A DNA stretch of 64,000 bases from Bacteroidota bacterium (GTDB lineage Bacteria > Bacteroidota > Bacteroidia > UKL13-3): NCBI GenBank assembly GCA_027491085.1, contig JAIXWW010000011.1, forward strand, positions 433,151 to 497,150, given 5' to 3'. Position 1 is the stretch's first letter, and each line of letters starts with the position of its first letter. A model generated the notes under the pieces. It made no database searches and was not told the origin of the DNA. It saw only the letters and a list, made by a program, of their open reading frames with translations. Shown here in pieces: positions 10,739-44,723 of this stretch. A program made the translations under genes and the position numbers.

Positions 10739-10774
10739 AAGAAAAGCTAATTCAATATTAGCTTTTCTTTTTTA
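10739..10774 (+). terminator. rho-independent terminator after sucD
   Basis: Perfect hairpin aaagaaaagctaat/attagcttttcttt followed by a T-run. Confidence 0.65.
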
Positions 10775-10809
10775 GGCCTCATAGTTCAATGGATAGAATA
10801 GATGTTTCC
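10775..10809 (+). repeat. 35-nt partial copy of the tRNA-Arg(CCT) 5' half (island left boundary, att-like)
   Basis: Exact 35/35 identity with 33861-33895. Identity stops inside the anticodon loop. Confidence 0.8.
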
Positions 10810-16065: not shown

Positions 16066-16623
16066 ATGAATGCTTTTGAGTTTATCATCAACTATAAAAA
16101 ACTATTATCTATGATTGAGCAAGTGGCTCAACCTCAATTCCTGAAATACACATATAAATTAAGGAAGGAAAAACCTTGGTCTTTAATCAAATCTAATACT
16201 ACTTTCAACTCTGAATTAGAAGCTTTGGGGTTTGTATTTTCAAACGTCTTAAATTTGTTTTATGAGGATTTGAAAAACCTTGATTTTGACGATGATGAAT
16301 TTCTATTGTATGCTGATGATTGGTTTATGCAAGCAATGAACCTTGAATTTGGAAAGTCAAAAAATACCTTAAAGGATAACCCTTTAGTTTGGATAACTGA
16401 TTTATCTAGGGACACAAAAAGAAAGGAATTCAACTTTAAAATTGAAGTGTTTTATGATAAAAAAACTAAATCAGTTAAAAAACTAATGGTATCAGGGTTT
16501 AATAAGAAAACCAAAAAGCTTATAGGGTATTCAACTGCAATATTTTTAGGTGAGAATATTGATGATTTAATAAAAGAAATCAATGATATGGCTATTCTTA
16601 TTTTTAAAGAATATAAACCTTAA
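16066..16623 (+). CDS. hypothetical protein
   Basis: 185-aa ORF, no motif recognised. Confidence 0.35.
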   Translation: MNAFEFIINYKKLLSMIEQVAQPQFLKYTYKLRKEKPWSLIKSNTTFNSELEALGFVFSNVLNLFYEDLKNLDFDDDEFLLYADDWFMQAMNLEFGKSKNTLKDNPLVWITDLSRDTKRKEFNFKIEVFYDKKTKSVKKLMVSGFNKKTKKLIGYSTAIFLGENIDDLIKEINDMAILIFKEYKP

Positions 16624-18003: not shown

Positions 18004-18160
18004 ACATACGCAAATATATGATTATTTTATATATGTCAAAATGGAGGTAACAATAATTTAACAAATGTCCTTTAAGTCAGTGTTTAATGAATTTTATTAA
18101 TCATCAAAAATATTTCAAAATAAAAAAACATACATAAATATAAATTTTATTTGCGTATGT
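18004..18160. promoter_or_regulatory. 13-bp inverted repeat pair (plus a direct near-copy at 18128) upstream of the ParB-MTase gene
   Basis: acatacgcaaata at 18004-18016 and its reverse complement tatttgcgtatgt at 18148-18160. A third near-copy acatacataaata sits at 18128-18140. Confidence 0.5.
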
Positions 18161-19838: not shown

Positions 19839-19899
19839 ATCAATTAAGATAGCCCTGAAATATGGGCTATCATTTAACATTTTAGAACCCCAAAATAGG

Positions 19900-20148
19900 A
19901 TGAAAATAGAATGGATTGAGATATCAAAAATTAAACTTTCTGATAAAAAAATGATATGTACCAATGATTTAGTATTAATGGATAATTCTATCCCCCAAAC
20001 CAAACTGTTAGTTGATGAAAACTATAACTTATTGGATAACTACAATGAATACTTAGGCTATTTAAAAAATAAAAATAAAACGGTTCCAGTAATCATATCA
20101 TCGGTAATGGATAACTTTTATATTAACGAATACTTACAAGCTGCATAG
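19900..20148 (+). CDS. hypothetical small protein
   Basis: 82-aa ORF between the MTase and the integrase. Confidence 0.25.
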   Translation: MKIEWIEISKIKLSDKKMICTNDLVLMDNSIPQTKLLVDENYNLLDNYNEYLGYLKNKNKTVPVIISSVMDNFYINEYLQAA

Positions 20149-20194
20149 ATATTTAAGCATTGAATAAATTAAAAATATAGAGGATATTAGCAAT

Positions 20195-21658
20195 ATGACA
20201 AAAGTATCAATCATCTTAATGCCACAAGGTAAAAACTCTAATACGGGTAGAATTTGTAAAATGATTTCAGAAAAAGGAAAAGTCCACAGGTTATCAATCG
20301 GATATACAATACCAATAGACGACTGGTGTGTTAAAACTAAAAGAGTTAAAAATACCAATTCAAATTCAACAATTATAAATTCAATCATAGAAAATATTAT
20401 GTCGGGAGACGTTACTAAACACAAAAAATATGAAGATTGTATTCTATGCTTTATGGAAAACGAGTTGGAATTAGGTCATTTAGATAAAACAATAAAATAT
20501 AGTACTTACAAAAAGTATAATACTATTGCAAAGTCTTTCAGAAAGGCAATGGTGAAATTGGAAATGCTCAAGATAACAATAAACGATGTTATAGGCCTAG
20601 AAAAACTAAAATCAATAATAAGTATCATCTCTATCAACGAAAGTAGAAATGGCAAAAGAAAAACCACCTTAAATAATTATTTGGTGGTCTTTTCTACATA
20701 TGTAAAAAAATGGTTTCAGAAGAATAACGGAAGTCCAACTGCTGATTTTAGCTTTATTCATAAAGAATCAAAAAAAGTGATACTCGGACACGCCAATTAT
20801 ATTACAAAAGATGAACTTACAATATTTGAAAATTATTATCCCAAAGGTATTAAAAATGGAACTATTCAAACAATTACTAAATCCATCTTTCTTAGCCAAT
20901 ATTATATCGGTGGTATAAGAATAAGCGACATTCTAACCCTTACAAATTCACAATTTAAAGCAAAAGGAATACTTATTAGAATGAGGAAAAATGGAGAAAC
21001 AAGAATCTATCCATATTCATTTGAACTCGTATTGGCATTAAGACCACTTTATCCCTACCAATATAACTCAGTAATTGAAAACTTAAATTTAGGGTCAATA
21101 AAATTACCTGCAACAATTGTAGCTGCAATGATTCGTTCTAATATAGAACTCCACAATTATAACTTAGAAGATATTGATAAAAAGATTAGTCAATTAGAAT
21201 ATTCATTATCACTTGAACACAAACAACTTGTTGATGAACTTGAAAGGTTAAAACAAATAATCAAAGGCTTAATTAAAGAAGAGTTTTTCAAACAAATACA
21301 AAACTTAACCGAAGGTTTTATCTTTCCATTGTTAGAATACGATATGTTCAAAAACCATTTAGATAGACCTGATTTATTTGACAAAGATTTAAGCTATGCA
21401 ATCCATAGAGCTACTTGTAAATATAACTCTAATCTGAAAGTCATTTGTAAAACAATAGGAATTAACCGAAAACTAACAAGTCATTCACCCAGACATTCAA
21501 TAGCTCTTCACTTAATGGAAAGGGGAGCAACCACACCCATCATTCAAGATGTTTTAGGACAAAGGAACCTTTCCTCAACGGCTGTATATCTTCAACAAAG
21601 ATTACCTTCCAATAATATTGGTGTGGGAATGGGATTGATACACGGAAGTAAACTGTAA
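20195..21658 (+). CDS. tyrosine-type site-specific integrase (Bacteroidota type with N-terminal arm-binding domain)
   Basis: C-terminal catalytic region HSPRHSIALHLMERG...LGQRNLSSTAVYLQ (R, HxxR, Tyr nucleophile). N-terminus KVSIILMPQGK is typical of Bacteroidota integrases. Confidence 0.9.
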   Translation: MTKVSIILMPQGKNSNTGRICKMISEKGKVHRLSIGYTIPIDDWCVKTKRVKNTNSNSTIINSIIENIMSGDVTKHKKYEDCILCFMENELELGHLDKTIKYSTYKKYNTIAKSFRKAMVKLEMLKITINDVIGLEKLKSIISIISINESRNGKRKTTLNNYLVVFSTYVKKWFQKNNGSPTADFSFIHKESKKVILGHANYITKDELTIFENYYPKGIKNGTIQTITKSIFLSQYYIGGIRISDILTLTNSQFKAKGILIRMRKNGETRIYPYSFELVLALRPLYPYQYNSVIENLNLGSIKLPATIVAAMIRSNIELHNYNLEDIDKKISQLEYSLSLEHKQLVDELERLKQIIKGLIKEEFFKQIQNLTEGFIFPLLEYDMFKNHLDRPDLFDKDLSYAIHRATCKYNSNLKVICKTIGINRKLTSHSPRHSIALHLMERGATTPIIQDVLGQRNLSSTAVYLQQRLPSNNIGVGMGLIHGSKL

Positions 21659-21682
21659 AACCTATTATAGATTTATAAGTAA
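21601..21682 (+). repeat. direct repeat copy 1 (integrase 3' end)
   Basis: ~82 bp, ~95% identical to 27831-27912. A further 15-bp match (cttcatatcatttga) follows after a 61-bp indel. Confidence 0.8.
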
Positions 21683-22010
21683 ATTAAATTACTGCTTATA
21701 TGATTAATATTCAGGAGAGTGCCTATACTATAGACAAAACTAACTTCATATCATTTGAATCTATGTTATTTTGTTATTTTTGTTATTGAATTTATTATGG
21801 TGCTTGGTTTTGAGGAAGCATTTACATAAAAGTATTTTTTTGAAAGGACGTGTATATGTCCACGTAAATTTGACTTTTTTTTATTGCATAATATATTTGT
21901 CAATGATTTCTCGCAAGTAGTTTTATCGATTTATTGCTAATTACCAAAATCATTAGTAGTGGTAAAACAAATGTTCATTGACATGGAGCCAAAATTTATT
22001 TTTTAGTTGA

Positions 22011-22670
22011 TTGGCGATTTTATTAAAACTAAAAAAGAAAATGAATATAACACAAAAAAGAAGCCCATTAAAATCCCTTTTAACGAATTATGATTTCCGA
22101 CATTATCTTAAAGATGGGAGAGTTAAAAAATTAGTTTGGTATTTGCTAGAGCTTGACAAAAAACAAAATATAGAAATAAATGAAGAAATAATTCTAGAAA
22201 TTTATGATAACTTGACGCATTATAAAACTCAAGAAATCTCAGTTCCAAGATTTGTTTATCATGGAAGTCATAATCTGAACAGAGAATCTATACTTTCAAA
22301 AGGCTTAATTGCATTTGAGAATCGTTGTACAGGAGTTTTTGCAAGTATTCCCAATAGTTTCAATCCAATGGAAGCTTCTCATTTTTATCCCTCAGTTTGT
22401 GGCGATACCGACTTATCTGAATCTAATTTAGATTTTTGGCAGATAGATACATTTCAACTACCCCCATTGACTTGGTTTGTCGACCCATATACACCTTCGC
22501 ATAGAAGCCTATGGATTTTCACATTCAATAATATTCCTCCTTTTGCATTAAAACTATACAAGGCAAAAAGAATTGGAAATTACTTAGACAGGTTTTCATT
22601 ATATCCGATTGAAGATGTAAACAGCGAATTGAAAAAAATAAAAAAGAAGAAAATTGAATTGTATTACTAA
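22011..22670 (+). CDS. putative PARP-like (H-Y-E class) ADP-ribosyltransferase domain protein
   Basis: YHGSHNLNRESILSKGLIAF resembles PARP catalytic [22 protein letters not shown] (H-G-S NAD-binding motif). C-terminal Y..IEDVN..LKK resembles the PARP Glu-containing region. Possible real start at Met 22041. Confidence 0.4.
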   Translation: MAILLKLKKKMNITQKRSPLKSLLTNYDFRHYLKDGRVKKLVWYLLELDKKQNIEINEEIILEIYDNLTHYKTQEISVPRFVYHGSHNLNRESILSKGLIAFENRCTGVFASIPNSFNPMEASHFYPSVCGDTDLSESNLDFWQIDTFQLPPLTWFVDPYTPSHRSLWIFTFNNIPPFALKLYKAKRIGNYLDRFSLYPIEDVNSELKKIKKKKIELYY

Positions 22671-23193
22671 AAAAACAAATAGATATAATATGGAAAATCA
22701 GAAAAACGAAAGAAAAATTTTATATATAGACATGGATGGTGTTCTAGCTGATTTTGAATCATCAATTAAAAGATACTTACCTGAATGGGATAACTTATCT
22801 GATGAAGAAAAGGGAGATAGAACCGATGATATTTGCGGTTCAGTACCAAACTTTTTCCTTGAATTGGAACCTATTCATGGAGCATTAGATGCTGTTAAAA
22901 ACTTAGCAGAATTTTTTGATGTTTACTTTCTATCGGCAGCTATGTGGAATGTGCCTGAAAGTTATACAGAGAAAAGACTTTGGATTGAAAAACATTTTGA
23001 CAGCTCTTTTAGAAAGAAACTAATCCTTACACACAGAAAAAACTTAAACATTGGAGATTACTTAATTGACGATAGGACATCACATGGTGCAGGCGATTTT
23101 ATGGGTGAACACATTCATTTTGGAACCCAAAAATTTCCCAATTGGACAGTAGTTGAAGAATACCTAAGTAAAGTGGTTATGAACAATCAATAA
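22654..23193 (+). CDS. 5'(3')-deoxyribonucleotidase-like HAD hydrolase (NT5C family)
   Basis: HAD motif I IDMDGVLADF (DxD), downstream LIDDR aspartates. Overlaps the upstream ORF. 179 aa. Confidence 0.7.
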   Translation: MNCITKKTNRYNMENQKNERKILYIDMDGVLADFESSIKRYLPEWDNLSDEEKGDRTDDICGSVPNFFLELEPIHGALDAVKNLAEFFDVYFLSAAMWNVPESYTEKRLWIEKHFDSSFRKKLILTHRKNLNIGDYLIDDRTSHGAGDFMGEHIHFGTQKFPNWTVVEEYLSKVVMNNQ

Positions 23194-23205
23194 AAAATAA
23201 ATTAT

Positions 23206-23961
23206 ATGAAAATAATATTTCAGCATCCGCCAACAGGAACTAAAGATCCTTTTAAAGATTTTGAACCGTGGAATCCTCGCCATTATCCGAAAGGCGGGGG
23301 AGTTTATATTTATGGATTAAAATTACATATAGATAATGAGCTAAAATTTGTTCCACTTTATGTTGGGAAACATAATACTAATGTTGGTAGAAGAGTATTT
23401 GAACATTATTATCAGGAAAGAATGCCTGGTAATAGCTGTAAAGAAATATTTGATTTAACCAACATTAAATCATTAGATGATATTAGGACTCTTTATGAAG
23501 CCATGAATAAATATGATAGTGTGAAAGGGAAACCTTTAGTTAGGATTAGTAACGAAAAACTGATTTGGTTTAATGATAAAGATTTCTTTAATACATACAT
23601 TTCAAAAAGCTTAGGTAAATATGTCTCTTTAAGTAATTATATATCAGGTTCTGGTCATCTTGCAAGTTTGTATCCAAAAGTTGGCGATTTTGATTCAATG
23701 ATTTCTAAAGATAAAACCATTTCAGAATATATTGATAACCTTCGCAATAAAATAATAGCTACTAAATCCTTATATAATGAAAATTTCTACTATCTCTATG
23801 TAGATAATATTTCCAGAGAAGATCTTTTAATTTATGAAAATTCAACAAAAATTGCCCTACAAGAGCTTGGAATATTTACAACGGCTTGGGCTAATAAAGA
23901 GGGAAATTCATCAATAATAAACTTTGATGAAATTTTTTCTAAGTTGATAAATCTAAAATAA
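23206..23961 (+). CDS. hypothetical protein with N-terminal GIY-YIG-like motif
   Basis: GGGVYIYGL...PLYVGKHNTNVGRRVFEHY matches the GIY-(10-11)-YIG...R...E pattern. 251 aa. Confidence 0.4.
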   Translation: MKIIFQHPPTGTKDPFKDFEPWNPRHYPKGGGVYIYGLKLHIDNELKFVPLYVGKHNTNVGRRVFEHYYQERMPGNSCKEIFDLTNIKSLDDIRTLYEAMNKYDSVKGKPLVRISNEKLIWFNDKDFFNTYISKSLGKYVSLSNYISGSGHLASLYPKVGDFDSMISKDKTISEYIDNLRNKIIATKSLYNENFYYLYVDNISREDLLIYENSTKIALQELGIFTTAWANKEGNSSIINFDEIFSKLINLK

Positions 23962-24064
23962 ACGTTTAAAGTGATGATGTTGCTTAAAAATCAGTTTGAT
24001 ATTTTAATTTAGAAATTCCAATTAGTAAAAAAAAGACATTTAAATATTTTAAAATACAACATAT

Positions 24065-24973
24065 ATGAAAACTACAAATTTTGAAGAAATCTTAAAGAAA
24101 GTTGAAACCTTATTTAATACTCACCAAATGAACCTAACTGGTACGTCCAACTATGAGGATAAAAGTGGTATTTTTTTCCATAAACTCGAACAAAAAGTTA
24201 TTCCAATTTATTCCCAAGATGAACTTATTAAATTTAAAGAGGGAGAACCATCACCTATTCTAGGTGCTTATTTAATTGAAACAGAATCTAACCCACGCTT
24301 TATGCTCTTTAATGATTCAATAAACGATTTGAGTATAAAATATGCTGATGAAAGGTCAGTCATTAACGGAGTGGATATTAGAAATTCGTCAGGGTTTATT
24401 ACAGCTGAACATCCAGATCCACCAGGCCTTTATCCTGAGGAAGCCAAAAACCGCATTGAAATTATAGTAAAACTTCAACTCCATATTTTTCATACTCTTC
24501 ATTATGCTTTTGGAGCATGGAAAACTCCCTTTTTTACAGAATTAAGCATAAGTTATATAAATAACTTAGTTAATTGTATTACAAAAAGAACTATTAATGA
24601 TGATAAAAATTTACTAGACTGCTACGCCTATATAAACAAAATTCCTGCTGAAGAACTAATTATCGAAAATTATTCTCAATTTTCAAAATATATTTTTGCC
24701 TTTGACCAATCCGATTGGAAGGAGATAGTTAATCTAGGCGTCTTAATTAATAAAATTCCTGAAAGCATTTGGAGTGGTTTTGTTCAAGCAAAACCAAAGG
24801 TAGCATTAAAAGACTATTTGTTAGATCATAAATCAGAAATTCAAGATTCATTTATTAATTGGGCAAAGAATAATACAGATGAACAACCTTTCTCTAAAAT
24901 TAAAGAATATTTAACTATTGAAAATACTGAAAAGTATCGTGGTAGTATAAAAGCAGGAGGATTCGGTATATGA
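24065..24973 (+). CDS. hypothetical protein
   Basis: 302-aa ORF, no motif recognised. Stop overlaps the next start. Confidence 0.4.
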   Translation: MKTTNFEEILKKVETLFNTHQMNLTGTSNYEDKSGIFFHKLEQKVIPIYSQDELIKFKEGEPSPILGAYLIETESNPRFMLFNDSINDLSIKYADERSVINGVDIRNSSGFITAEHPDPPGLYPEEAKNRIEIIVKLQLHIFHTLHYAFGAWKTPFFTELSISYINNLVNCITKRTINDDKNLLDCYAYINKIPAEELIIENYSQFSKYIFAFDQSDWKEIVNLGVLINKIPESIWSGFVQAKPKVALKDYLLDHKSEIQDSFINWAKNNTDEQPFSKIKEYLTIENTEKYRGSIKAGGFGI

Positions 24974-25632
24974 ACTCCCTCACCCTCATAGAACAATCTG
25001 GGTTCAAAATCAATCCACCTAAAATTGTATTTGTGCCATTTACAGAAGAAAAACTTCAAGGGATTAGCACTAGAGAGTTTGGTAGTCCTTACGAAAATAT
25101 GGATGACAAAATTGGTGGCAATTTGTATTTATGGCTGCAACAAACCAATTCTGTTTTATGGCAAATAAGTGATGAACAGGTATTGATTTTTGCAAATACA
25201 GTTGAAAAGTTAGGTGAGCGTTTTGCCACACTAATGAAGTTACCAAAAGAAGAGGGTAAAGCGGTATGTATAGAAATGGTTAAATCCTTAGCCATTTCTA
25301 CTTATATTATTGAAAATAGTATCTTTAAAATACAAGGCAATTGGCTGTTAAAATACCGCAATAAAGAACTAGGGGGTACTCTTCAATACTTCTTGCTTTG
25401 GCTCACCAAACATGAGCTTCAAGGGAATATTCAAGCCAACAAAGCCTTGGATATTTACATCGAAAAATTTGCCAAGAATGTTAATTTGGATTTGTTTAGT
25501 AATTACCCTTCAAGTGAAATTATGGAGGCATTTATTTATTGCTTTTTTAGAGGAAATAACGAAACAAAAATGCTATTTGCTAAACTAGAAAATCCTAACT
25601 ATTCTCTAAATGAACTCATTACTATTCCATAA
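24970..25632 (+). CDS. hypothetical protein
   Basis: 220-aa ORF, translationally coupled to the previous ORF. Confidence 0.4.
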   Translation: MNSLTLIEQSGFKINPPKIVFVPFTEEKLQGISTREFGSPYENMDDKIGGNLYLWLQQTNSVLWQISDEQVLIFANTVEKLGERFATLMKLPKEEGKAVCIEMVKSLAISTYIIENSIFKIQGNWLLKYRNKELGGTLQYFLLWLTKHELQGNIQANKALDIYIEKFAKNVNLDLFSNYPSSEIMEAFIYCFFRGNNETKMLFAKLENPNYSLNELITIP

Positions 25633-26077
25633 TAAAAGCACAATGAATTCAGATAAATGGAAGATTTATGTTAATGGCTATAAAAATGAAATAGACCTAT
25701 ACCATCGTATTGATAGTGATTGGCTAGAAGGGGGTATAAAATTATATTTGGGAAATGAGGAATATAGCATTCCCTTAAGTCTATTATTAGTGGAAGAGTT
25801 ACATGATTTTCTCAATTGGTTAATAAAAAAACAAAGTGGTATTGAAACCATTCCAATTTTTCAATTTATGGATACAGAACTTTGTTTTGAAACAGTTACT
25901 TCAGATAATGAATTTTATTTAAAATTGAATTTAAACAGAATCAATAAAAAGCAAATCTCTATAATATCGCAAATTTCAGGACCTCAGTCGGAAATGCGTT
26001 CAATAATTGAAGAATTAAACTCGCTAATAACTAAATATCCTTGCCGTTGTAACAATCAACATATTATACTTAAATAA
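25610..26077 (+). CDS. hypothetical protein
   Basis: 155-aa ORF overlapping the previous ORF. Ends convergent with the NT5C-like paralog. Confidence 0.35.
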   Translation: MNSLLFHNKSTMNSDKWKIYVNGYKNEIDLYHRIDSDWLEGGIKLYLGNEEYSIPLSLLLVEELHDFLNWLIKKQSGIETIPIFQFMDTELCFETVTSDNEFYLKLNLNRINKKQISIISQISGPQSEMRSIIEELNSLITKYPCRCNNQHIILK

Positions 26078-26618
26078 TAAGTTTCCCTTTATTTTTTGGT
26101 TCAAATGTTTCAGGCCAAAACACTTCATAATTATCAATTAGGTATACCAATACTTTGTCCCAGTCTTTAAACTCCTCACTGCCTAAAGGAATGAGTTCAT
26201 TTATAAATTTATCCGAACCATTATTTCCTTTGCGGTCTATCAAATAATGGCCCACTTGCAAATCTTTTCTGTGGCTTAAAATTAGTTTTTTTCTAAAGTT
26301 TTCTCCAAAGTGATTTTCAACCCAAATTCTCTTATCAGTATACATATTGGGTATATCCCAACAAGGCGCAGAAATAAAATAAATATCGTAAAAATTACTC
26401 AAGCTATTAATGGATTGAATAGCAAGATTGATAGGTGATAGATTTTGATAATAATGAGGGTATTCTAAATATACGTTTTTAAGGGCAACTTCTTTTTCTG
26501 TTTCAAATAAATGCTCCCAATTATTTACTCTTTTCATTACATTATCAGAAAGATCAACCACTATATCGTCAAGTTCTATTAAGAGTAGTTTTTTACGTAA
26601 AGTTACTTTCTTTATCAT
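26070..26618 (-). CDS. NT5C-like HAD paralog, probably catalytically degenerate
   Basis: Clear paralog of 22654-23193 (YFISAPCWDIPNMYTDKRIWVENHF...KKLILSHRKDL versus YFLSAAMWNVPESYTEKRLWIEKHF...KKLILTHRKNL). Motif I is IELDD instead of IDMDG. Confidence 0.6.
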   Translation of the reverse strand: MIKKVTLRKKLLLIELDDIVVDLSDNVMKRVNNWEHLFETEKEVALKNVYLEYPHYYQNLSPINLAIQSINSLSNFYDIYFISAPCWDIPNMYTDKRIWVENHFGENFRKKLILSHRKDLQVGHYLIDRKGNNGSDKFINELIPLGSEEFKDWDKVLVYLIDNYEVFWPETFEPKNKGKLII

Positions 26619-26629
26619 ATGGCTAAGTT

Positions 26630-27187
26630 TTAAAATTTAATAAAGTTTTGCAACCAGATAGTGGCACATTCAAAACGATTTTTAGAATTACCTAAAACTA
26701 CTTTTCTAACTGAAGTGTGAGTTAAGTTGGGGTTCAAGATGTTTGATCTGTGTCCTCTACTTTGTGAAGAGTAATCTATTAAAGCTATTAAGATTGAGGC
26801 TCTAATGCTAGTACCATATGTGATATTTTCACCTATACTTTTGCAAGGGATTTTCAACCATGAATAAGTTCTATCGTGATCCATATCTCTTTTTGTGCTA
26901 TCCGCTAAGTGTTTGTTAGCTTCTTTACGAACTTCCTCAGAGATTTTGTAAGCAGGAAGGGGTTTCATTGAATCCAACAATGGGATAAGTTCCTTGATAG
27001 CTATTTCTCTTTCTGGTGCAAATCTTGTTGAATTTGCGTAAGCTTTAACATATTGAATGTAAGCTTTAGGATTGGTTCTTATCAGGTTGATTTCGTTTAT
27101 GTATGCCAGTTCTTCTGCTGAATGTTGTCCAAAACAACAAATAGGTGCAAAAAAAATAAATATAACTATGTTTCTTATTTTGTCCAT
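26630..27187 (-). CDS. secreted CAP-domain (YkwD-like) protein
   Basis: Signal peptide. SRGHRSNILNPNLTH matches the bacterial CAP/YkwD signature GHR.NILNP. Confidence 0.6.
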   Translation of the reverse strand: MDKIRNIVIFIFFAPICCFGQHSAEELAYINEINLIRTNPKAYIQYVKAYANSTRFAPEREIAIKELIPLLDSMKPLPAYKISEEVRKEANKHLADSTKRDMDHDRTYSWLKIPCKSIGENITYGTSIRASILIALIDYSSQSRGHRSNILNPNLTHTSVRKVVLGNSKNRFECATIWLQNFIKF

Positions 27188-27744
27188 GATCTGTTAAGGT
27201 ATATATGAAAATCAGTATAAATATCCTTTAATAACTTAATATCTCTTCGCAAGGTTCTTTCAGTAACTTGGTTTTCTTCACAATATTTATCTATATCTAA
27301 TTGTCTATTTTTTAACGTAGAAACATATAAATTAATTATTCTTCTATACTTTTGAAGCATTAGGCTTTGCCTATTTGATTGTTGCCGAATAAAATCTTTC
27401 TTATTCATAATTATCTTATCTAAACCCTCCAATTTTTCATTTATTATAATAGTATATTTTTTAATTGAACTATCTAATTTTAAATGAGGTGCTCCAATAA
27501 GGACTATAGATAATTCGTTAATTTGTTCATAGGGTACTATTTGATTAAAGTCTTCCAAAATTTTTTCATTTAGTAAATTAGAATCTACAATTATCAAAAA
27601 TGAAGGAACGGCAATAAAATCTTCAATTTTGGTAACCTCATAGTATTCAATGTCACTTTCTGATTTAATGGTTTTTAACTGTTCAATTAATAACTCATTT
27701 TTACTATAAATAAGGATTGTATTCTCTTTGTTAAATTGATTCAT
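27175..27744 (-). CDS. putative transcriptional regulator (receiver-like N-terminus, C-terminal HTH)
   Basis: C-terminal VTERTLRRDIKLLK resembles a DeoR/HTH_11-type helix-turn-helix. Overlaps the CAP gene by 13 nt. Confidence 0.4.
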   Translation of the reverse strand: MNQFNKENTILIYSKNELLIEQLKTIKSESDIEYYEVTKIEDFIAVPSFLIIVDSNLLNEKILEDFNQIVPYEQINELSIVLIGAPHLKLDSSIKKYTIIINEKLEGLDKIIMNKKDFIRQQSNRQSLMLQKYRRIINLYVSTLKNRQLDIDKYCEENQVTERTLRRDIKLLKDIYTDFHIYLNRSWTK

Positions 27745-27830
27745 ATTTCGAAAATAATGCTATTTTCAATTATTAAAAGTTTATTAGGTCCTATATTTGT
27801 CCATTATACCATTTCATAAACTATTTTTCT

Positions 27831-27927
27831 ATTACCTTCCAACAATATTGGTGTAGGAATGGGGTTGATACACGGAAGTAAACTGTATAACCTATTATAG
27901 ATTTATAAGTAACTTCATATCATTTGA
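27831..27927 (+). repeat. direct repeat copy 2: remnant of an integrase 3' end (no integrase ORF attached)
   Basis: Encodes ...PSNNIGVGMGLIHGSKL, matching the last ~19 codons of the integrase at 20195-21658, then a shared downstream segment. Confidence 0.8.
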
Positions 27928-28094
27928 GTATAAGTTAAACACATCTTTTCTAAAGTTAATTAAACCCTCCGAGGATTGATAATGGAATTCAATGGATTTT
28001 GGATACTTCTTTACTATTTTAGAATCCCTAATCCAATTTCAGAATAAATGTATAGTGAGAAAAGTAAATTCCTAAATTGATTTTAACTGTGTTC

Positions 28095-28562
28095 TTACTT
28101 TTTAATTTCTTTAAAAAGAACATATACAAATTGGTTGTTTTCTGCATCAAATGAAATTAAAAATTCCATTCCATTTATAAAACCAGAAGAAGATTCGTGT
28201 ATTATTTCATTACTTTTAGTAATAATGTCATTTTTCTCTTTTGATTTAGTTTCAGAAGTAACTATCAACAAATCTGTAGTAATATTTGAACCATTAATAA
28301 AATTACTTGCCTGACTTCTTGCTTTAACATTAGCAACCCTGCTCATAATAGATTCACTTGAATATTTTCCTTTATCAAGTATTACAACGGAAATCAAATA
28401 ATTTTTTGTCGCATCATTTAATAATTTTACTCCCTCAAACTTACTTTCTTCGTACATTCTTTTGACATAATTTGCAATGGATTGATTTGACCTAATTGTC
28501 TGTGAAGAAATTTGAGAATTAAACTTAAAAATAAATAAAATTGAAAATACTAAATATCTCAT
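28095..28562 (-). CDS. secreted hypothetical protein
   Basis: Signal peptide. 155 aa. Confidence 0.4.
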   Translation of the reverse strand: MRYLVFSILFIFKFNSQISSQTIRSNQSIANYVKRMYEESKFEGVKLLNDATKNYLISVVILDKGKYSSESIMSRVANVKARSQASNFINGSNITTDLLIVTSETKSKEKNDIITKSNEIIHESSSGFINGMEFLISFDAENNQFVYVLFKEIKK

Positions 28563-28578
28563 AATGTTAAAAAAATAA

Positions 28579-29319
28579 TTAGTATTTTATACAACGAACC
28601 GAAAAACCACATCCTAAATCTTTACCTCTATAATCATCTAATAACCCTTTTTCTTGATCATTAAATAATCTAAAATAACCAGCATACCTATTTCCAATTT
28701 TACTGCTGCTCCACCATATTCCAGTTTTACCATATGTCAAAAAAATTGTATTCTGTATTTTGGAAGTTCCATCCATATTACCATAATGATCAATATGTAA
28801 TCCTGGGAGTGCATTAAAACCAGTACTGTTATAATACTTTTTTGCATAATTAACCTTACTATTTGATTCTATGGCATATTCAGGTAATTCCATTTTTTTA
28901 CCATCCATTAATTTTACTATTTCCCAACCTTCTTTACTTTTTAGTTTAGAACCGTCACCCCCAACTTCATCTATTAATTCCTTCCACTCCTCAATTGAGG
29001 GAACATGCCAACCTTCAGGGGCTAAACCTCTTTTGTCATTCACTGCATACCAGTTATATAGTTTGCCGTATTTTTCATTATTTGTTGGGTCAAAATGTAA
29101 ATAACACCAAGCAGGGGTTTCATCATCATTAGCTTTTTTCCAATCTTCACGTGATTTTGCCTCTGGAATAATATCTCCATTTTTAAAATGGTTTACATCC
29201 AAATTTTTAACCATCCAGACTTGAATACCTATTTTAACGCTGTTATTAATTTCACTTTGCGCAATACTTTTAAATGTTATAGTTAAAAGTATTATACTAA
29301 TTATAATATTTTTTTTCAT
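28579..29319 (-). CDS. Fibrobacter succinogenes major paralogous (Fib_succ_major) domain protein
   Basis: Signal peptide. IGIQVWMVKNLDVNHFKNGD and C-terminal GFSVRCIKY match the Fib_succ_major signature (G.QVWM.eNL ... SVRC). Confidence 0.7.
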   Translation of the reverse strand: MKKNIIISIILLTITFKSIAQSEINNSVKIGIQVWMVKNLDVNHFKNGDIIPEAKSREDWKKANDDETPAWCYLHFDPTNNEKYGKLYNWYAVNDKRGLAPEGWHVPSIEEWKELIDEVGGDGSKLKSKEGWEIVKLMDGKKMELPEYAIESNSKVNYAKKYYNSTGFNALPGLHIDHYGNMDGTSKIQNTIFLTYGKTGIWWSSSKIGNRYAGYFRLFNDQEKGLLDDYRGKDLGCGFSVRCIKY

Positions 29320-29363
29320 TATTTAAGATGTTAACATTAAAGAATATATCAAAAATCCTCAGC

Positions 29364-30515
29364 CTAATCTATTCCAATTGGATAGATTTTAATACTTTCA
29401 ATTCTTTTTATTTTATCCAAGTCTTCGACTCTATAAAAGTTTATAGTCTTCTTTTGTGGTATTGAAAGGTCAATTAGAAAATCAAATGGTTTTGTGAATA
29501 TTATTTTACCCGATTTTAAATTAATAGTTGCTCTATCACTATTGTAGGGTTTAATTATTTTCTGAAAATTATTAATGCCATTATTAAAGCCATCACTAAT
29601 TGAATAAAATGATTTAAAATTATTACTATAAAAATTATTTTCATACCCAACATCTTTTTTGTTTTGAGCGTTTGAATCGTATTTTTTGTATCTAAGAAAA
29701 TTAACAATTGAAAATTTTTCAAAACCATAATCCACTACAGCACTTTTCCTTAATTCATCAAACTCATTCAATTGTTCGTTCAAAATTTTGTTGCAATCCT
29801 TATATAAAATACACTCTATTGAACTTGACTTGTTTAAAGCGATTATATATTCATCGGTTTGAATACCCATACTCTTGTATTCAATTGATTGACTTTTACT
29901 AAGAGACAATGATTTTAAGGAACTAACAATGTAATTTGTAAAGGATTTATAATTTTCTACATTGGGTTGAATTTGAATTTCACAATAAAATCCGCTTACA
30001 AGTATTTTACTCATTTTAAAATCATATTCATAATAATTATTCTTTGTCTTTGATAAGTCTACAACTTTGAAAAGATTTTTTAAAGCCGTTAATGTTGCAC
30101 TTCTATTCAGCTCAATATTTGTAATATTGGAGGCAAAGAGCGAACCGTTTACTTTAACTTCAGAATGACCCTTTTGTTGACAGTATTCAACAATTTTATT
30201 TAATGACACTATTGCTGTTATAGAAACACTATAATTAAATTGGTCAATTAAGTATTCTCCATTAATTTGATAACTTTTAATATTTCCGTTTGATATTGAC
30301 TCAATATTTTCACTAATTAATTCATCATTTATTATTGTTGAACTAGATGTTAAATATGCACCTGAAACTTGTTCAATTGCAGATCTTAATGCTACTCTAA
30401 TAGCATCTTCCTTATTTTTACCTATGGCTGAGGTTTTAATTTCCACTTCATTCCCAGCATTAACACTAAAAGTGAAAAATAATTGAATTAATAAAATAGT
30501 AATTGTTTTTTTCAT
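29364..30515 (-). CDS. secreted hypothetical protein
   Basis: Signal peptide. 383 aa. Tightly spaced with neighbours. Confidence 0.45.
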   Translation of the reverse strand: MKKTITILLIQLFFTFSVNAGNEVEIKTSAIGKNKEDAIRVALRSAIEQVSGAYLTSSSTIINDELISENIESISNGNIKSYQINGEYLIDQFNYSVSITAIVSLNKIVEYCQQKGHSEVKVNGSLFASNITNIELNRSATLTALKNLFKVVDLSKTKNNYYEYDFKMSKILVSGFYCEIQIQPNVENYKSFTNYIVSSLKSLSLSKSQSIEYKSMGIQTDEYIIALNKSSSIECILYKDCNKILNEQLNEFDELRKSAVVDYGFEKFSIVNFLRYKKYDSNAQNKKDVGYENNFYSNNFKSFYSISDGFNNGINNFQKIIKPYNSDRATINLKSGKIIFTKPFDFLIDLSIPQKKTINFYRVEDLDKIKRIESIKIYPIGID

Positions 30516-30533
30516 TGTTTTAAAAATTATAGT

Positions 30534-31514
30534 TTACCAAATAATATTGTATGTGTATCTTGTGGGTTGATTTTTGTAGTATTCAATTGAAATTTCCTTA
30601 TAAGCTTGAATTCTTTTTTGCTCTAAATCATATTCTCTTTCTTTTGAAATTTTCTCAACTTGAATTTTTTCATTATATCTTCTAATTTCCTCTGCTTCAG
30701 CATTTTTTTTATCTAGTGCTACTTTGTTTTGAAAAATTAAAATCAAAGAATCTACTTCATTCATACATTTAGATTCAATATTTATAGAACTTACTATTTG
30801 AAAAATCTCACTTAGAGAATTTTGATTAATTACCCAAATTGATTTTATTTGTTTTAGCTTACTTTCACAATCAAAATCAATCATATTTTGATAAATTTTT
30901 GAACTCAAACTAATACATTTGTTGTGACATTCTAAACATGCATTAGGAACAGAGTTTAACAAATAAATTGCCTCTCTAAAATTATGTTGTAACTCTAAAT
31001 TTGATGCTTCTAGTAAAATTGATTCACAATTATTAGCGTAGTAGTTAATTATTTTTTCCCTTCCCTCTTTAAAAAATAATGTTAAATCCGATGAATTCGT
31101 TTTTAAGTTTTTAAGGGCATTTAGTTGCGCTTTAATTTCTGACTCACCTACACCTTTCAAAGTGAAAGAAATATTTGAATACAATCTATTATCAATGGCA
31201 TCACCTATATAAAATGAAACTATAATTTTAATTGCAATTAATTTTATAGCTCCTGTAATAACTTCTTTATTCAATAAAGTTATTTTATTTGTGAATACAA
31301 ATCTTGGATTAATACTATTACCTGACATACCATTATTTGTTAAAATTGTATTCATTTGATTTGAAAGCATGCCCTTTGCATCCGAGCTTAAATCATTTGA
31401 ATTAATAATGGGATTTAAAATTATTCTGTAAATTTCCGGGTTATTTGATTCATTTTTCTGAGCTTTTAACTCACAGAATTGGATCGATAATAAAAAAACT
31501 ATTAAATATTTCAT
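30534..31514 (-). CDS. secreted hypothetical protein
   Basis: Signal peptide. 326 aa. Coiled-coil-like C-terminus. Confidence 0.45.
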   Translation of the reverse strand: MKYLIVFLLSIQFCELKAQKNESNNPEIYRIILNPIINSNDLSSDAKGMLSNQMNTILTNNGMSGNSINPRFVFTNKITLLNKEVITGAIKLIAIKIIVSFYIGDAIDNRLYSNISFTLKGVGESEIKAQLNALKNLKTNSSDLTLFFKEGREKIINYYANNCESILLEASNLELQHNFREAIYLLNSVPNACLECHNKCISLSSKIYQNMIDFDCESKLKQIKSIWVINQNSLSEIFQIVSSINIESKCMNEVDSLILIFQNKVALDKKNAEAEEIRRYNEKIQVEKISKEREYDLEQKRIQAYKEISIEYYKNQPTRYTYNIIW

Positions 31515-31515
31515 T

Positions 31516-32463
31516 TTATTTTTCTCCTATTACTAAAATTGACTCGCCAAGCCCCCGGATCATCAACTTGCTTGTTATTAAATATGGTTCCTTTTTTAAT
31601 TCTAGCTGTAAACCTCGTAGAAATTTTCTAGCATCTAAAGGTAATCCATCTTTAATAGTAGGTATTCTTACTTGCTCAAAAAGCATGAAATTCTCATTTG
31701 CATCAGTCAAGTTATAAGTACTATTAATTGAATTTTTTGAAACCCATTCTTCAATTATTTGATTAACTTCTTTTCCCCCAATTTCATCTTCTAAATTTTT
31801 ATCCCAATTGTCCCATTTTTTTATCCTAATCACAACCTCTCTTCCATTGATTTGTATATCACTGAAATAGTCTTTCAATTGTTTTAAAAATGGATTTAAG
31901 TTCTTTTTTATGGCATTTTCTAAAATTGTTGCCATAACTTTATTTTCATTCATTTTACATGTGCCACTAGAAACCGCTACTCTTTTACTCGTATATGCGT
32001 CTAAAGCTTCTAATGTAAATGAAATTGAGTTATCTGAATTTAAATTCCACCATATTTGAATAATTAAATCTGCCTTTGCTTGTTTAATGATTTTATCAAG
32101 AGGTGATTCTGAAATATCTGAATTTGATTTTGTACTAGATGTAACCAAATCTTCTCCAGAAATTTTGGATAGATTTTTTATCTCTTGCTCTGCATCTTTT
32201 AATCTAAATCCATTATCAATCATTAATTGACCAATCTTAGAGATTACTAAGCCAATTTCGGTGTCTTCTTGAAATGCTCTTTTATAATCTGGTGTTTTAA
32301 TTGATAAGCCTTGATTTTCAGTTTTTGACATAAAATATCTTTGTTCACACCAATTATCAGAGGGAATCACCATTAAAGTTGGCATTTTGTTTTGACTTAG
32401 AGCTGCAGCTATCCCTAGATGACAAAAAATTAAGAATAGAAATCTTATAAAAAGTAGTTTCAT
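31516..32463 (-). CDS. secreted hypothetical protein
   Basis: Signal peptide. 315 aa. Start is 2 nt from the stop of the downstream gene. Confidence 0.45.
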   Translation of the reverse strand: MKLLFIRFLFLIFCHLGIAAALSQNKMPTLMVIPSDNWCEQRYFMSKTENQGLSIKTPDYKRAFQEDTEIGLVISKIGQLMIDNGFRLKDAEQEIKNLSKISGEDLVTSSTKSNSDISESPLDKIIKQAKADLIIQIWWNLNSDNSISFTLEALDAYTSKRVAVSSGTCKMNENKVMATILENAIKKNLNPFLKQLKDYFSDIQINGREVVIRIKKWDNWDKNLEDEIGGKEVNQIIEEWVSKNSINSTYNLTDANENFMLFEQVRIPTIKDGLPLDARKFLRGLQLELKKEPYLITSKLMIRGLGESILVIGEK

Positions 32464-32683: not shown

Positions 32684-33142
32684 CTAAATCTCTAAAAAAT
32701 CAGGATCCATTGAAATCAATGTAATTGTTTCAAAATTATTTTGATTGAATTTGCTCCAACTCAAAATCAAACTTTCAATCAACCTTGCTCTTTCAAACTG
32801 TCTCATTTCAAACTCTGGTTTGATATTGTTTTCAGGTTGTAAAATATTATTATCTCCGTTGGTTGCTAAGTGTTTTTTACCTTTTTGGTTTGCTTCTTTT
32901 AACCAATCGTGAATGGTGCTTCGTAATTTCTCATCCGAACATTGACTTGAATCTATAAACCTAATAAGCCTATTTGAATGATTTGGATAATTAATTGGTT
33001 GAGCAGATAAAAAAGGGTTATCATAAATACCAATTTGTTTGGTTGTTCTACTCATTTCCATTCCGTAGTGCCCGAATACCAATGAATAGTCAGTATTCGT
33101 CAATTGAAAAATGTCTCCTTGTATTTTGATTAATTTGAGCAA
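32684..33142 (-). CDS. hypothetical protein (weak macro-domain-like N-terminus)
   Basis: IKIQGDIFQ resembles the macro-domain start I.VV.GDIT, but the following Gly-rich NAD-ribose motif is not conserved. Confidence 0.35.
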   Translation of the reverse strand: MLKLIKIQGDIFQLTNTDYSLVFGHYGMEMSRTTKQIGIYDNPFLSAQPINYPNHSNRLIRFIDSSQCSDEKLRSTIHDWLKEANQKGKKHLATNGDNNILQPENNIKPEFEMRQFERARLIESLILSWSKFNQNNFETITLISMDPDFLEI

Positions 33143-33237
33143 AGTTTATTTCTTTAACAACTGATTAAGTTACAAATAAAATAATTTAATTATCAATTTA
33201 ATAATTTTTTTATCATTAAGTAAGTAAATATATCATA

Positions 33238-33639
33238 GTGACAAAATATTATAATGTAACCTTGTGTATGCATATCGGCTTACGAATTAAGATTGCTAGA
33301 ATTAGTAAAGAACTTAAGCAAGAGGAGCTTGCAGAAATGATAAATAAAACACGCCCTCTCATTTCAAGTATAGAACAAACAGGTAAAGCCAGCCATTATA
33401 CATTAAAGAAAATATGTGAAGTTTTGGATTTAGATATCAATGAATTAGAGTCTTCAGTTGTATCCGAATCATCAGAATTAAACGTCAATCAACGTGAGCA
33501 ATTATTAAGTTTAAAAAATAGAATAAAAGAAATAGAAGAGGACAATGATAACTTAAGGTCACTTGTTTCTGCACAATCAGAATTAATAAAAAAACAAAAG
33601 GAATTCATTAATAAACAAAGTAAAAATCTTAAATTTTAA
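33238..33639 (+). CDS. XRE-family HTH transcriptional regulator with coiled-coil tail
   Basis: IGLRIKIARISKELKQEELAEMINKTRPLISSIEQ is a Cro/C1-type HTH. Sits adjacent to the island right end. Confidence 0.7.
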   Translation: MTKYYNVTLCMHIGLRIKIARISKELKQEELAEMINKTRPLISSIEQTGKASHYTLKKICEVLDLDINELESSVVSESSELNVNQREQLLSLKNRIKEIEEDNDNLRSLVSAQSELIKKQKEFINKQSKNLKF

Positions 33640-33860
33640 TTATTCAGTTTATTATCAAAACTTTTTATTCGTTTAACTTCCTATCTATTGACACCAAGTC
33701 AAAAACCCCTTATTAATTATTAATGCACCTTACTTAATTTTTTTGCATTCTAGGGTGCAAATTGATTACTTTTGAAGACTAAAATTGCAATAATGCAAGA
33801 AAATTAACTAGATTTGTAAGTAAGTAAATCCATAAATCACTCTTTTTCAAGTTTTTATAT

Positions 33861-33932
33861 GGCCTCATAGTTCAATGGATAGAATAGATGTTTCCTAAAC
33901 ATTTGATATGAGTTCGATTCTCGTTGAGGCTA
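33861..33932 (+). tRNA. tRNA-Arg (anticodon CCT)
   Basis: Manual cloverleaf: acceptor GGCCTCA/TGAGGCT (G1-U wobble), D-stem GTTC/GAAT, anticodon stem GATGT/ACATT with loop TTCCTAA (U33, anticodon CCT, A37), T-loop TTCGATT. Confidence 0.8.
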
Positions 33933-33951
33933 CTATTATTAATTAGAGTAC

Positions 33952-34200: not shown

Positions 34201-34275
34201 CTTTCATTAGTTGATGTTTTCACTGACGTGGCAAAGCCAGTCAGGATGCTGACATGCTTCGCTTCGTCAGCACCT

Positions 34276-34313: not shown

Positions 34314-34399
34314 TATATGTAAAAAGCCTACTCAATTTTTGGGTAGGCTTTTGTATTATTAATAAAAAATAATTACTTGCACAAAACAAAAATATAATA

Positions 34400-36004: not shown

Positions 36005-36011
36005 AAGCACT

Positions 36012-37184: not shown

Positions 37185-37187
37185 CTT

Positions 37188-44718: not shown

Positions 44719-44723
44719 TAAAA

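Follow-up and report, generated by a model that had tools for sequence, protein, structure and literature searches.

Cis-mobilizable elements (CIMEs) and ICE-IME tandem accretion, exemplified by ICESt1/ICESt3 of Streptococcus thermophilus, provide a framework in which a block without integration genes, placed beside an integrase-encoding element and flanked by direct repeats from the integrase-associated region, is accounted for by accretion and subsequent decay; versions that have the block coexist with versions that lack it (PMC5704250). A CIME has as its repeats the 3' end of a gene that serves as chromosomal target, and it is found in tandem at the edge of an island (PMC5704250). Islander-type islands are integrated in tRNA or tmRNA genes, where they leave a regenerated gene and a displaced fragment; displacement of the 5' half is the minority configuration, recorded for 159 of 3919 islands (PMC4383910). 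In integrons (IntI, attI, attC), recombinase-less cargo gathers at a spot adjoining a tyrosine recombinase gene; the site lies upstream of that gene, and the cassettes are promoterless single ORFs ending in attC. Composite SCC arrays of staphylococci consist of serial blocks between direct repeats of the rlmH (orfX) 3' end, and some of these blocks carry no recombinase genes and depend on recombinases encoded by their neighbours. Their target is a housekeeping gene, their recombinases are serine recombinases (Ccr), their repeats are short (about 15-27 bp), and their integration sites have been defined experimentally.

In the window (the whole 64-kb stretch of DNA that was analysed), tRNA-Arg(CCT) hosts a 23-kb genomic island, 10810-33852, in which a module of ~6.2 kb with nine genes in two convergent operons lies directly 3' of the island integrase gene, int (Table 1). 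The module is an add-on of a broadly familiar kind and not a new type of system. It shares with SCC arrays the setting between gene-3'-end direct repeats and differs from them in its target gene, recombinase class and repeat length. The sequence at 21686-27830 is a discrete two-operon cargo module with no recognisable recombinase, and its closest analogue is a CIME. All the features of CIMEs named in the first sentence above recur here, with two differences: the candidate att repeats consist of the 3' end of the int gene that the island itself carries and a palindrome downstream of it, and the module is nested mid-island (10.8 kb from the left end and 6 kb from the right end), not in tandem at its edge (PMC5704250). 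The outer island corresponds wholly to the Islander type (PMC4383910), with tRNA-Arg as its target, an identity block of 42 nt whose end lies in the anticodon loop, an intact tDNA, a cognate fragment in the same orientation (mapped at 10775-10809), an internal tyrosine integrase, and an empty site in a relative (L008), both sides of which are colinear with the window in two alignments that overlap by 42 nt. It departs from most of those islands in displacing the tRNA 5' half and in carrying its integrase mid-island, away from the att site; its right arm is 84% identical to that of L017 and 80% identical to those of L020 and L021. The nested module applies the Islander logic, a regenerated gene and a displaced fragment, to a protein-coding gene, with the difference that the 'target gene' is the integrase gene and the insert has no integrase (PMC4383910).

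Table 1. Features of the outer island and the nested module, with positions in the window.
Feature	Position	Strand	Evidence or remark
Island left end, displaced 5' half of tRNA-Arg(CCT)	10768..10809	+	43-nt, 95% direct repeat with 33853-33895
Tyrosine recombinase gene (int), 487 aa	20195..21658	+	Pfam PF00589, 58.7 bits
Repeat copy 1: last 58 nt of int, stop codon, start of window-specific spacer (X)	21601..21685	+	
X' (22-nt partial duplicate of X) and degenerate Y' (21743-21767, 4 mismatches to Y consensus)	21722..21768	+	
Left module-end palindrome GGACGTGTATATGTCC, consensus GGACAT-GTAT-ATGTCC, upstream of first operon	21846..21861	.	
Module operon 1: ORFs 219 aa, 179 aa (NT5C), 251 aa, 302 aa, 220 aa, 155 aa (WapI-like immunity)	22011..26077	+	
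Module operon 2: ORFs 182 aa (NT5C paralogue), 185 aa (CAP domain), 189 aa (sub-threshold C-terminal HTH)	26070..27744	-	
Right module-end palindrome GGTCCTATATTTGTCC, degenerate in window; consensus GGACA-TATAAT-TGTCC	27787..27802	.	
Right linker, palindrome to copy 2, ~28-30 nt	27803..27830	+	Homologous in window, L030, L020, L028; absent from L029
Repeat copy 2: 19 codons of a displaced int 3' end with TAT in place of the stop, plus X	27831..27915	+	
Y, conserved 27-nt imperfect palindrome AACTTCATA-TCATTTGAG-TATAAGTT	27910..27937 (core 27912-27936)	+	
Second cargo block: ORFs 155 aa, 246 aa Fib_succ_major, 383 aa, 326 aa, 315 aa DUF6175	28095..32463	-	
Conserved right arm: 152-aa gene (-) and HTH_3 regulator gene (+)	32684..33639	.	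Pfam; homology to relatives
Island right end, regenerated tRNA-Arg(CCT) 33861-33933	33853..33933	+	Island supplies 5' half, 33853-33895

An earlier, sequence-only reading had described an ~82-bp direct repeat of the int 3' end, continued by a further 15-nt segment after a 61-bp indel, with a second copy to which no ORF is attached. A repeat search and BLASTN of the window against itself aligned 21601-21685 with 27831-27915 (80/85 nt, 94.1% identity, E 1.4e-30) as the strongest non-trivial repeat in the 64-kb window, and neither search returned a third copy there. The further segment was recovered as an exact 18-nt match of 27910-27927 to 21741-21758. Copy 1 includes 27 nt past the int stop and completes the working int ORF; copy 2 has no ORF attached, because an in-frame TAA lies four codons upstream (27817-27819) with no intervening ATG and its own stop has changed from TAA to TAT. 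The two copies have three coding differences, all synonymous. That reading was right about the duplication and understated its size, since the 85-nt repeat is the eroded form of a longer duplication, about 150-170 nt, running from 58 nt before the int stop through a variable spacer to the 27-nt imperfect palindrome Y. Erosion in the window comprises the lost stop and a 61-nt deletion in copy 2, together with departures from Y at 4/27 positions in copy 1. The deletion lies between a pair of imperfect repeats of 22 nt (CCTATTATAGATTTATAAGTAA, 21661-21682, and CCTATACTATAGACAAAACTAA, 21722-21743), and the tail-plus-spacer length is 98 nt in copy 1, 78-104 nt in relatives and 37 nt in copy 2. Y is found 3' of int in every island of the window island's lineage, with a mean pairwise identity of 95% versus 64% for the neighbouring spacer. 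Y' is common to the window and L030, so it moves along with the module.

The presence of Y once 3' of every int in the lineage is what would be expected if the repeat were a mere regulatory or terminator element of integrases, an explanation that was weighed together with a chance match and an assembly artefact. The probability of all three taken together is close to negligible: 58 nt of the repeat (E 1e-30) are coding sequence of int, many related islands have no module, no Rfam family and no terminator-like fold was detected at the int-3'-end/Y repeat, and the same architecture is reproduced in three other assemblies. An assembly artefact in particular was ruled out by an independent Logan contig (L032), which is 100% identical to 26999-28552 and spans copy 2.

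Related islands exist both with and without the block, at exactly the same position, so that the sequence enclosed by the repeats is indeed an add-on module, as had been suggested. A single copy and no module were found in at least 12 related islands (L003, L017-19, L021-27 and a P0004 contig). The sequence-only reading had called for a search for islands in which the integrase is followed directly by the next cluster; this order, int and then a convergent Fib_succ_major-type cluster, was found in L017-19, L021-27 and the P0004 contig, where the gene map leaves a gap of only 69 nt between int and the next gene. The contrary case envisaged in that reading, a module that is always present beside a merely regulatory repeat, thus does not hold. 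The second cargo block of the window is the counterpart of the cluster that adjoins int in these unoccupied islands. Two metagenomic islands, L020 and L028, carry a homologous module with the same junctions and intact repeats (149 nt, 92.7% in L020; 150 nt, 95.3% in L028) that have a common left boundary, ATTACCTTCC, and a common right boundary, ...AAGTTAT. L021 is the colinear unoccupied counterpart of L028, with 95.8% identity as far as the repeat, 91.2% from there on, and nothing but the module missing. The island-borne modules of the window, L020, L028 and L030 agree in their repeat boundaries and in their right-hand junction, and the right linker common to these four points to a single ancestral event. 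In L020 int is reduced to a 121-codon remnant beside the island's left-end gene, and in L030 there is no int left of Y'. A 96%-identical module is found in L029 in an ordinary chromosome, with no integrase and no repeat; L028 and L029 have 8,268 nt in common at 96.3% in unrelated contexts. Even conservatively, these loci form a natural series in freshwater Bacteroidota, comprising an empty tRNA site, islands that are unoccupied, occupied or backbone-deleted, and a copy of the cargo in a chromosome, and the series shows very short conserved blocks beside an integrase gene letting multi-gene cargo shuffle among genomic islands.

The preferred explanation, to which about an even probability was assigned, is that the arrangement is a fossil of island-island accretion plus homologous exchange. 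Within the decay-and-accretion framework for CIMEs (PMC5704250), the composite would have formed once, through recombination of related islands at the block from the int 3' end to Y, which joined an island with cargo after its int-Y block to an island with a Fib_succ_major-type cluster. The backbone of the second island would then have been deleted, leaving behind its int 3' end and Y; we infer a founding deletion of about 11-12 kb, ending 4 codons past the catalytic Tyr codon. Copy 2 would be the orphaned 3' end of another int allele, copy 1 being the one that completes the working gene. Short conserved blocks (44-46 nt of int and 27 nt of Y) may subsequently have acted as portable homology, through which the module and downstream cargo would have been gained, lost and swapped among islands, most simply via host homologous recombination, and the arrangement in the window would now be decaying.

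Accretion and decay are favoured by the deletions in L020 and L030, which show that wholly or partly int-removing deletions occur in the island family. Fragments of the copy-2 type differ from a working int mostly synonymously (all three coding differences in the window, 3/4 changes in L028 copy B), as expected of a once-functional allele. Near-identical modules are joined to unlike right-hand DNA, and the switch falls within the first ~18-44 nt of copy 2. Identity between the modules of the window and L030 is 99.6% as far as 27830; the next 44 nt contain 2 mismatches, and divergence is total from 27875. Between L020 and L028 there are 0 differences over the module's last 522 nt and the initial 18 nt of copy B, and 11 in the following 131 nt. 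The latter pattern agrees with crossing over between this short stretch of int and int genes on other islands. Against homologous exchange, 44 nt and 27 nt are close to the lower limit for RecA-dependent exchange, and founding intermediates were not found among the loci, neither as tandem full islands nor as an int-Y-module-right arm arrangement without copy 2. Three observations agree better with a site-specific process: Y resembles a recombinase core site in being palindromic and much more strongly conserved than the sequence around it; the edges of Y coincide with three independent junctions (the module left linker, the second cargo block of the window and the L030 left flank); and between two more distant islands, L001 and L005, homology ends 4 nt past the int stop. 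A site-specific integrant, too, has exactly this arrangement of 'regenerated gene plus displaced fragment'.

The corresponding alternative takes the repeats to be attL and attR of an element without an integrase, with the island integrase excising and inserting 'one repeat plus cargo' in trans; this was considered rather unlikely. Equally tentative is its corollary that the attachment site of such a hitchhiker overlaps the 3' end of the helper int and that a replacement 3' end is supplied, which would keep the helper gene intact as with tRNA-targeting islands. The configuration is the canonical one, the repeat lengths of 85-150 nt are within the range for tRNA-targeting islands, and the repeat boundaries are sharp and identical in three islands. 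The displaced copy decays, with the stop loss and 61-nt deletion in the window and private changes in L028 copy B, and in two independent pairs the divergence switch between near-identical modules is at the left edge of the repeat, + <=18 nt. The inverted-repeat structure and conservation of Y and the L001/L005 end point count on the same side. However, the single ancestral right junction of all island-borne copies leaves independent insertions undocumented; between L020 and L028, the left switch (after the tail, >= +46 nt) is offset from the right (<= +18 nt), unlike a single reciprocal crossover; the L029 module has no repeats; and the window has degenerate forms of both Y' and the right palindrome. 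The island's only integrase presumably serves tRNA-Arg, and the similarity of the repeat to this presumed chromosomal target (tRNA-Arg anticodon region) is not significant (p 0.04-0.37). Use of the repeat as an integrase att site with mobilisation in trans, as put forward in the sequence-only reading, is unsupported, and both repeat copies are eroded. A fuller version was considered rather unlikely: the module would be a recombinase-less island parasite whose attachment site, the 3' end of the helper int, guarantees a cognate integrase on landing, which carries a spare 3' end, and whose helper integrase has a second, self-overlapping site (int 3' end and/or Y) besides tRNA-Arg. If the integrase does act on its own 3' end, the locus would be a compact case in which a mobile element targets another element's recombinase gene, and would provide a second attachment site for a tyrosine recombinase of a rare uncharacterised clade.

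That clade consists of ~500-aa proteins, with 43 representatives at E<=1e-10 among 1.84e9. R242, K265, H430xxR433 and Y465 are invariant in the integrase alignment, and likeness to Xer or IntI is confined to the last ~50-55 residues. IntI was considered and ruled out, as the scores (TIGR02249, 32.2 bits versus a cut-off of 265; NF011946, 20.9 versus 435) are far under the integron-integrase cut-offs. The island resembles an integron in that a tyrosine recombinase gene adjoins a spot where recombinase-less cargo gathers; here the spot is at the 3' end of a gene that is not IntI, and the cargo is a nine-gene block of two convergent operons with their own promoters, promoter-proximal palindromes and no attC. 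An integron-like platform, in which the integrase and Y would form a fixed acquisition site and the module and the Fib_succ_major-type cluster would be successive 'cassettes', was judged very improbable. Cargo 3' of int does differ in otherwise similar islands (a Redoxin gene in L021; distinct lipoprotein clusters in L017, L020, L030 and the window), and both the second cargo block and the module left linker begin immediately past Y. But ~100 nt past Y are still conserved in most islands, so that Y is not a general cargo boundary, only one repeat-flanked module family was seen, and the blocks are multi-gene, with no attC-like ends, in addition to the low integrase scores.

There is a rather small chance that a mechanism other than accretion with exchange or integrase catalysis was at work. 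The cargo proper terminates at two palindromes within the span between the outer boundaries of the repeats, and in about 400 kb of loci these motifs are confined to the two ends of each module. The L029 homology begins about 10 nt outside the left palindrome and stops 1-2 nt outside the right one. Both observations would suit a palindrome-bounded mobile unit moved by a host Xer-like or hairpin-dependent enzyme, the int-3' repeat being a by-product of landing or repair, which was considered improbable. Xer-dependent dif/pdif modules have 28-bp XerC-spacer-XerD sites at their flanks; the terminal palindromes of the present module are 16 nt long, GGACA(N6)TGTCC. Each palindrome lies upstream of an inward-reading operon, near Bacteroidota-type TAnnTTTG promoter motifs, and the two are therefore equally putative operators of a shared regulator; linkers of 74 nt and ~28-30 nt separate them from the repeats, no target duplication was seen in L029, and a 150-nt duplication is not a known by-product of such insertion.

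Within the insert no attC-like element or Rfam match was found, and operon 1 ORFs gave no recombinase or defence-system matches. The module had been said to lack an integrase of its own, in agreement with the nine ORFs, among which no recombinase, relaxase or transfer protein was recognised (Pfam, E<=5 for unknowns; PADLOC, NCBIfam, PHROGs). The encoded proteins comprise two paralogous NT5C-family nucleotidases, a WapI-like immunity protein, a CAP-domain protein and five proteins without assignment.

The direct repeat that a sequence-only reading had placed around the 6.2-kb module downstream of the integrase gene (int) was recovered both by a repeat search and by BLASTN of the window against itself, as positions 21601-21685 and 27831-27915 (80 of 85 nt identical, E = 1.4e-30). 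Copy 1 consists of the final 58 nt of ORF 20195-21658 and the 27 nt past its stop codon. Copy 2 had been described as having no ORF attached, and this was borne out: an in-frame stop lies four codons upstream, a start codon is absent, and the terminal TAA has become TAT. int is completed by one repeat copy, the second being orphaned. L032, an independent contig from SRR16126839, matches window positions 26999-28552, copy 2 included, at 100% identity. The additional shared segment, reported beyond a 61-bp indel, is also real; self-BLASTN gave an exact 18-mer that is part of motif Y, a conserved 27-nt imperfect palindrome downstream of int. The 61-nt length difference is a copy-2 deletion between two 22-nt imperfect repeats, with the tail plus spacer measuring 98 nt in copy 1, 37 nt in copy 2, and 78-104 nt in relatives. 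Short-word BLAST detected no third repeat copy in the 64-kb window, and simple three-repeat tandem accretion within the window is therefore excluded. The differences between the window copies, which are synonymous only, were rejected as proof of a separate functional allele behind copy 2 because in two of the three cases it is the working copy 1 that carries the derived state, which leaves a weak signal. The signal is clearer in L028, a related island carrying the module, where copy B (the equivalent of copy 2) shows four departures from the consensus, three synonymous and one non-synonymous; this pattern suggests that copy B was formerly the end of a working int allele.

Informative loci for comparison were obtained through exact-protein look-ups. 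A genome scan with the integrase alone as query returned zero relatives, and the use of an alignment as query yielded one 4-kb contig from genomes and one partial contig from metagenomes. The proposal that the module is an insertion implied islands without it, and such islands, sharing the same backbone, were found (L017-19, L021-27, L003, and, from its gene map, the P0004 contig). These unoccupied islands have int, a single run of int 3' end, spacer, and Y, and then a convergent cluster of Fib_succ_major type, headed in L021 by a Redoxin gene. In the occupied islands L020 and L028, repeats of 149 nt (92.7%) and 150 nt (95.3%), respectively, flank a homologue of the window module, begin at the identical nucleotide (ATTACCTTCC), and end just past Y (...AAGTTAT). 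L021 pairs with L028 as its colinear unoccupied form; identity is 95.8% as far as the repeat and 91.2% from there on. L020 has lost the entire backbone and kept a 121-codon int remnant alone, and L030 and L031 carry a window-type module (96-99.6% identical) with int absent on the left and another downstream cluster on the right. An L028-type module (96.3% over 8,268 nt) was found at L029 among ordinary chromosomal genes, with RecQ, PurH, DHFR, and CdaA on one side and thiolase and Crp on the other; neither integrase nor repeat was present at this copy. As an add-on, the module is discrete and lacks a recombinase; related islands vary in carrying it, and in those that do it lies invariably at the int 3' end. 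That it is a parasite targeting the integrase gene of its helper is unlikely. A merely regulatory repeat, or an artefact, is hardly credible, being contradicted by the repeat E-value, the single-copy islands, the L021/L028 pair, and the independent contig L032.

The positions at which recombination switched partners were located from variant patterns between pairs of occupied loci. The window and L030 differ by 3 mismatches in the 1,177 nt up to 27830 and by 2 in the following 44-nt int block, and similarity is gone from 27875 on. On the right side of L020 and L028 there were 0 differences over the module's final 522 nt and the first 18 nt of copy B, followed by 11 differences in 131 nt. On their left side, an int remnant with 8% divergence passes into a module with 1% divergence, and the change occurs only past the tail. 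The right-hand switches lie at the left edge of the repeat, plus at most 18 nt, that is, within copy 2, which therefore behaves as right-hand DNA and not as module. Both these switches and the differing downstream clusters would be explained if the 44-nt int block of copy 2 had crossed over with int in another island. A single crossover point for all pairs was tried and did not fit, the left and right switches of L020 and L028 not being one reciprocal point.

The most likely origin, in which we place about even confidence, begins with the joining of two related islands. The backbone of the second island would then have been deleted, leaving its int 3' end and Y, and the composite would afterwards have spread and diversified through recombination in short conserved blocks. 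Comparable deletions were directly observed in L020 and L030, and the decay and accretion framework yielding cis-mobilizable elements fits this origin (PMC5704250). The locus works similarly to such accretion products and departs from them in one defining feature, since the repeats here are the 3' end of the island's own integrase gene; the block is in tandem at a chromosomal target in those elements, whereas here it is nested. Counting against joining and exchange, the blocks offer little length for RecA-dependent exchange, Y has the look of a functional site, and junctions cluster at Y edges and, for L001 versus L005, 4 nt past the int stop. No intermediates of joining and deletion were found among related islands. 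The main rival is the sequence-only reading, in which the neighbouring integrase would excise and insert the module at a site overlapping the integrase's own 3' end. This accounts for the canonical layout of a regenerated gene plus a displaced fragment, but independent insertions were not seen, the crossover point is inconsistent, and the repeat has no significant similarity to the integrase's presumed tRNA-Arg site (in the best local alignment to the attachment region, p is about 0.04 with Y and 0.24-0.37 with the entire repeat; 3% of random 120-nt window tiles score equally well). Such mobilization is a rather doubtful possibility.

Conservation of Y was 95%, compared with 64% for the adjoining spacer. 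The motif is an imperfect inverted repeat, with AACTTCATA and TATAAGTT flanking TCATTTGAG, and beyond it about 100 nt are likewise conserved in most islands. Folding of Y as a hairpin or terminator gave no significant structure (-2.2 kcal/mol, z = -0.5), terminator and promoter scans showed no enrichment, an Rfam scan returned the two tRNAs and nothing else, and a search for Y in viral contigs gave zero matches. A Y-like or int-like site was looked for where the variable region ends on its right and was absent. An integron-like platform at Y is very improbable, and the locus is not an integron.

The cargo proper comprises two convergent operons with a palindrome ahead of each. Across all loci fetched, palindromes of the form GGACA(N6)TGTCC occur at the module ends only, just upstream of the inward-reading operons, and the homology of the chromosomal copy L029 ends 1-10 nt outside them. 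Possible roles for them are as operators for a regulator encoded in the module or as recombination ends; the module's 189-aa protein has a weak C-terminal HTH. Mobile cargo bounded by the palindromes is, as an account of the locus, improbable. The linkers between palindrome and repeat measure 74 nt on the left and about 30 nt on the right, and the right linker is homologous across the window, L030, L020, and L028, so that one founding junction is ancestral to all island-borne copies. No paralogy of the module with the rest of the island was detected, the sole match being that of its two NT5C genes to each other, and defence-system annotation of the cargo gave no hits. In the module variant of L028 and L029, a DUF6175 gene and a gene of 385 aa (L028 13012-15233) show distant homology (27-28% identity) to the DUF6175/326-aa pair of the second cargo block in the window (30534-32463); such a gene pair is thus found both inside and downstream of the module.

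Coordinates of motif Y, the module-end palindromes, and the tRNA gene in the window and in three loci carrying the module
Feature	Window	L020	L028	L029
Motif Y	27912-27936			
Degenerate copy of Y	21743-21767			
Left palindrome, consensus GGACAT-GTAT-ATGTCC	21846-21861	10548-10563	11640-11655	9943-9958
Right palindrome, consensus GGACA-TATAAT-TGTCC	27787-27802	16278-16293	19874-19889	18134-18149
tRNA-Arg(CCT) gene	33861-33933			

The integrase is a 487-aa tyrosine recombinase (PF00589) in which R, K, HxxR, and Y465 are invariant among relatives. It is rare: among 1.84e9, the representatives related to it at E<=1e-10 number 43, of which about 30 are full-length (roughly 500 aa, 25-34% identity), and there are five 90%-identity clusters at 48-75% identity. 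Resemblance to Xer and IntI is confined to the last ~50 residues. At least four types of C-terminal tail plus spacer were distinguished (HNNTL, HGQ, HEK, and HGSKL, the last in the window). The clade is a rare, uncharacterised one of ~500-aa tyrosine recombinases, and in most members Gln replaces the conserved His/Trp before the catalytic Tyr.

The surrounding island was delimited by a 43-nt repeat (10768-10809 and 33853-33895, window self-comparison) corresponding to the 5' half of tRNA-Arg(CCT). Locus L008, retrieved by look-up of the flanking SucD, is an empty site, colinear with window positions 1-10809 (97.8%) and 33853-42625 (93.4%), with a 42-nt overlap between the two alignments; positions 10810-33852 are therefore a 23-kb island in the tRNA-Arg anticodon region. 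The 42-43-nt repeat ends in the anticodon loop, and because the 5' half of the tRNA is displaced, the present 5' half and promoter come from the island. This configuration is in the minority, with 159 of 3919 islands in Islander (PMC4383910), and the island is otherwise an ordinary tRNA island of the rarer 5'-fragment-displacing type. It encodes RadC, a small serine recombinase, a ParB-methylase, an 82-aa ORF (19900-20148), and the mid-island tyrosine recombinase, followed by the 6.2-kb stretch, a cluster on the minus strand (Fib_succ_major, DUF6175), and a gene for an HTH regulator. Type IX secretion genes (PorV, Por_Secre_tail) are present in the host, whose G+C is ~30%. Judging by record names, most of the related contigs derive from lake metagenomes, and the host is therefore presumably a freshwater Bacteroidota.

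A different island (DnaB_C-like, WYL, and PD-(D/E)XK genes) occupies the same SucD/tRNA-Arg site at L014 5020-12960 and has only the first ~1.27 kb, with a 148-aa gene, in common with the window island, which makes the site a hotspot and identifies the left-end gene as a shared module. At L017 16228-16362 the island-borne tRNA 5' half is unfused to a 3' half, 11 nt downstream comes a complete tRNA-Arg(CCT) whose acceptor stem differs, and a second Phage_integrase gene (20925-21458) follows 4.5 kb further downstream. In L008 the 3' 40 nt of tRNA-Arg (10944-11016) recur 340 nt downstream (11356-11395), bracketing an 82-aa GIY-YIG ORF, an arrangement resembling the remains of a tiny island on the opposite side of the same tRNA; the window equivalent (~33861-34300) keeps the ORF, and the tRNA 3' repeat was not detected there. 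The L021 island, or larger composite, is in a different context, between type I restriction-modification genes (hsdR left, 1-2408; hsdM right, 19651-21464), without the 148-aa and RadC left end, and with a tRNA-Arg 5'-half copy (19255-19294) and no full tRNA. The window island contains two copies (11564-11650 and 33170-33257) of a conserved ~90-nt element bearing the palindrome TTATCAA-N-TTGATAA, one upstream of the left-end 148-aa gene and one in the divergent 152-aa/HTH_3 intergenic region; the element is also at L028 4744-4831 and L017 15521-15720, and it probably serves the island's Cro/CI-like regulator as an operator region. Outside the island, a perfect 38-nt palindrome (44721-44758) separates two convergent ORFs, 43441-44718 (+) and 44762-45859 (-), and probably acts as a bidirectional terminator.
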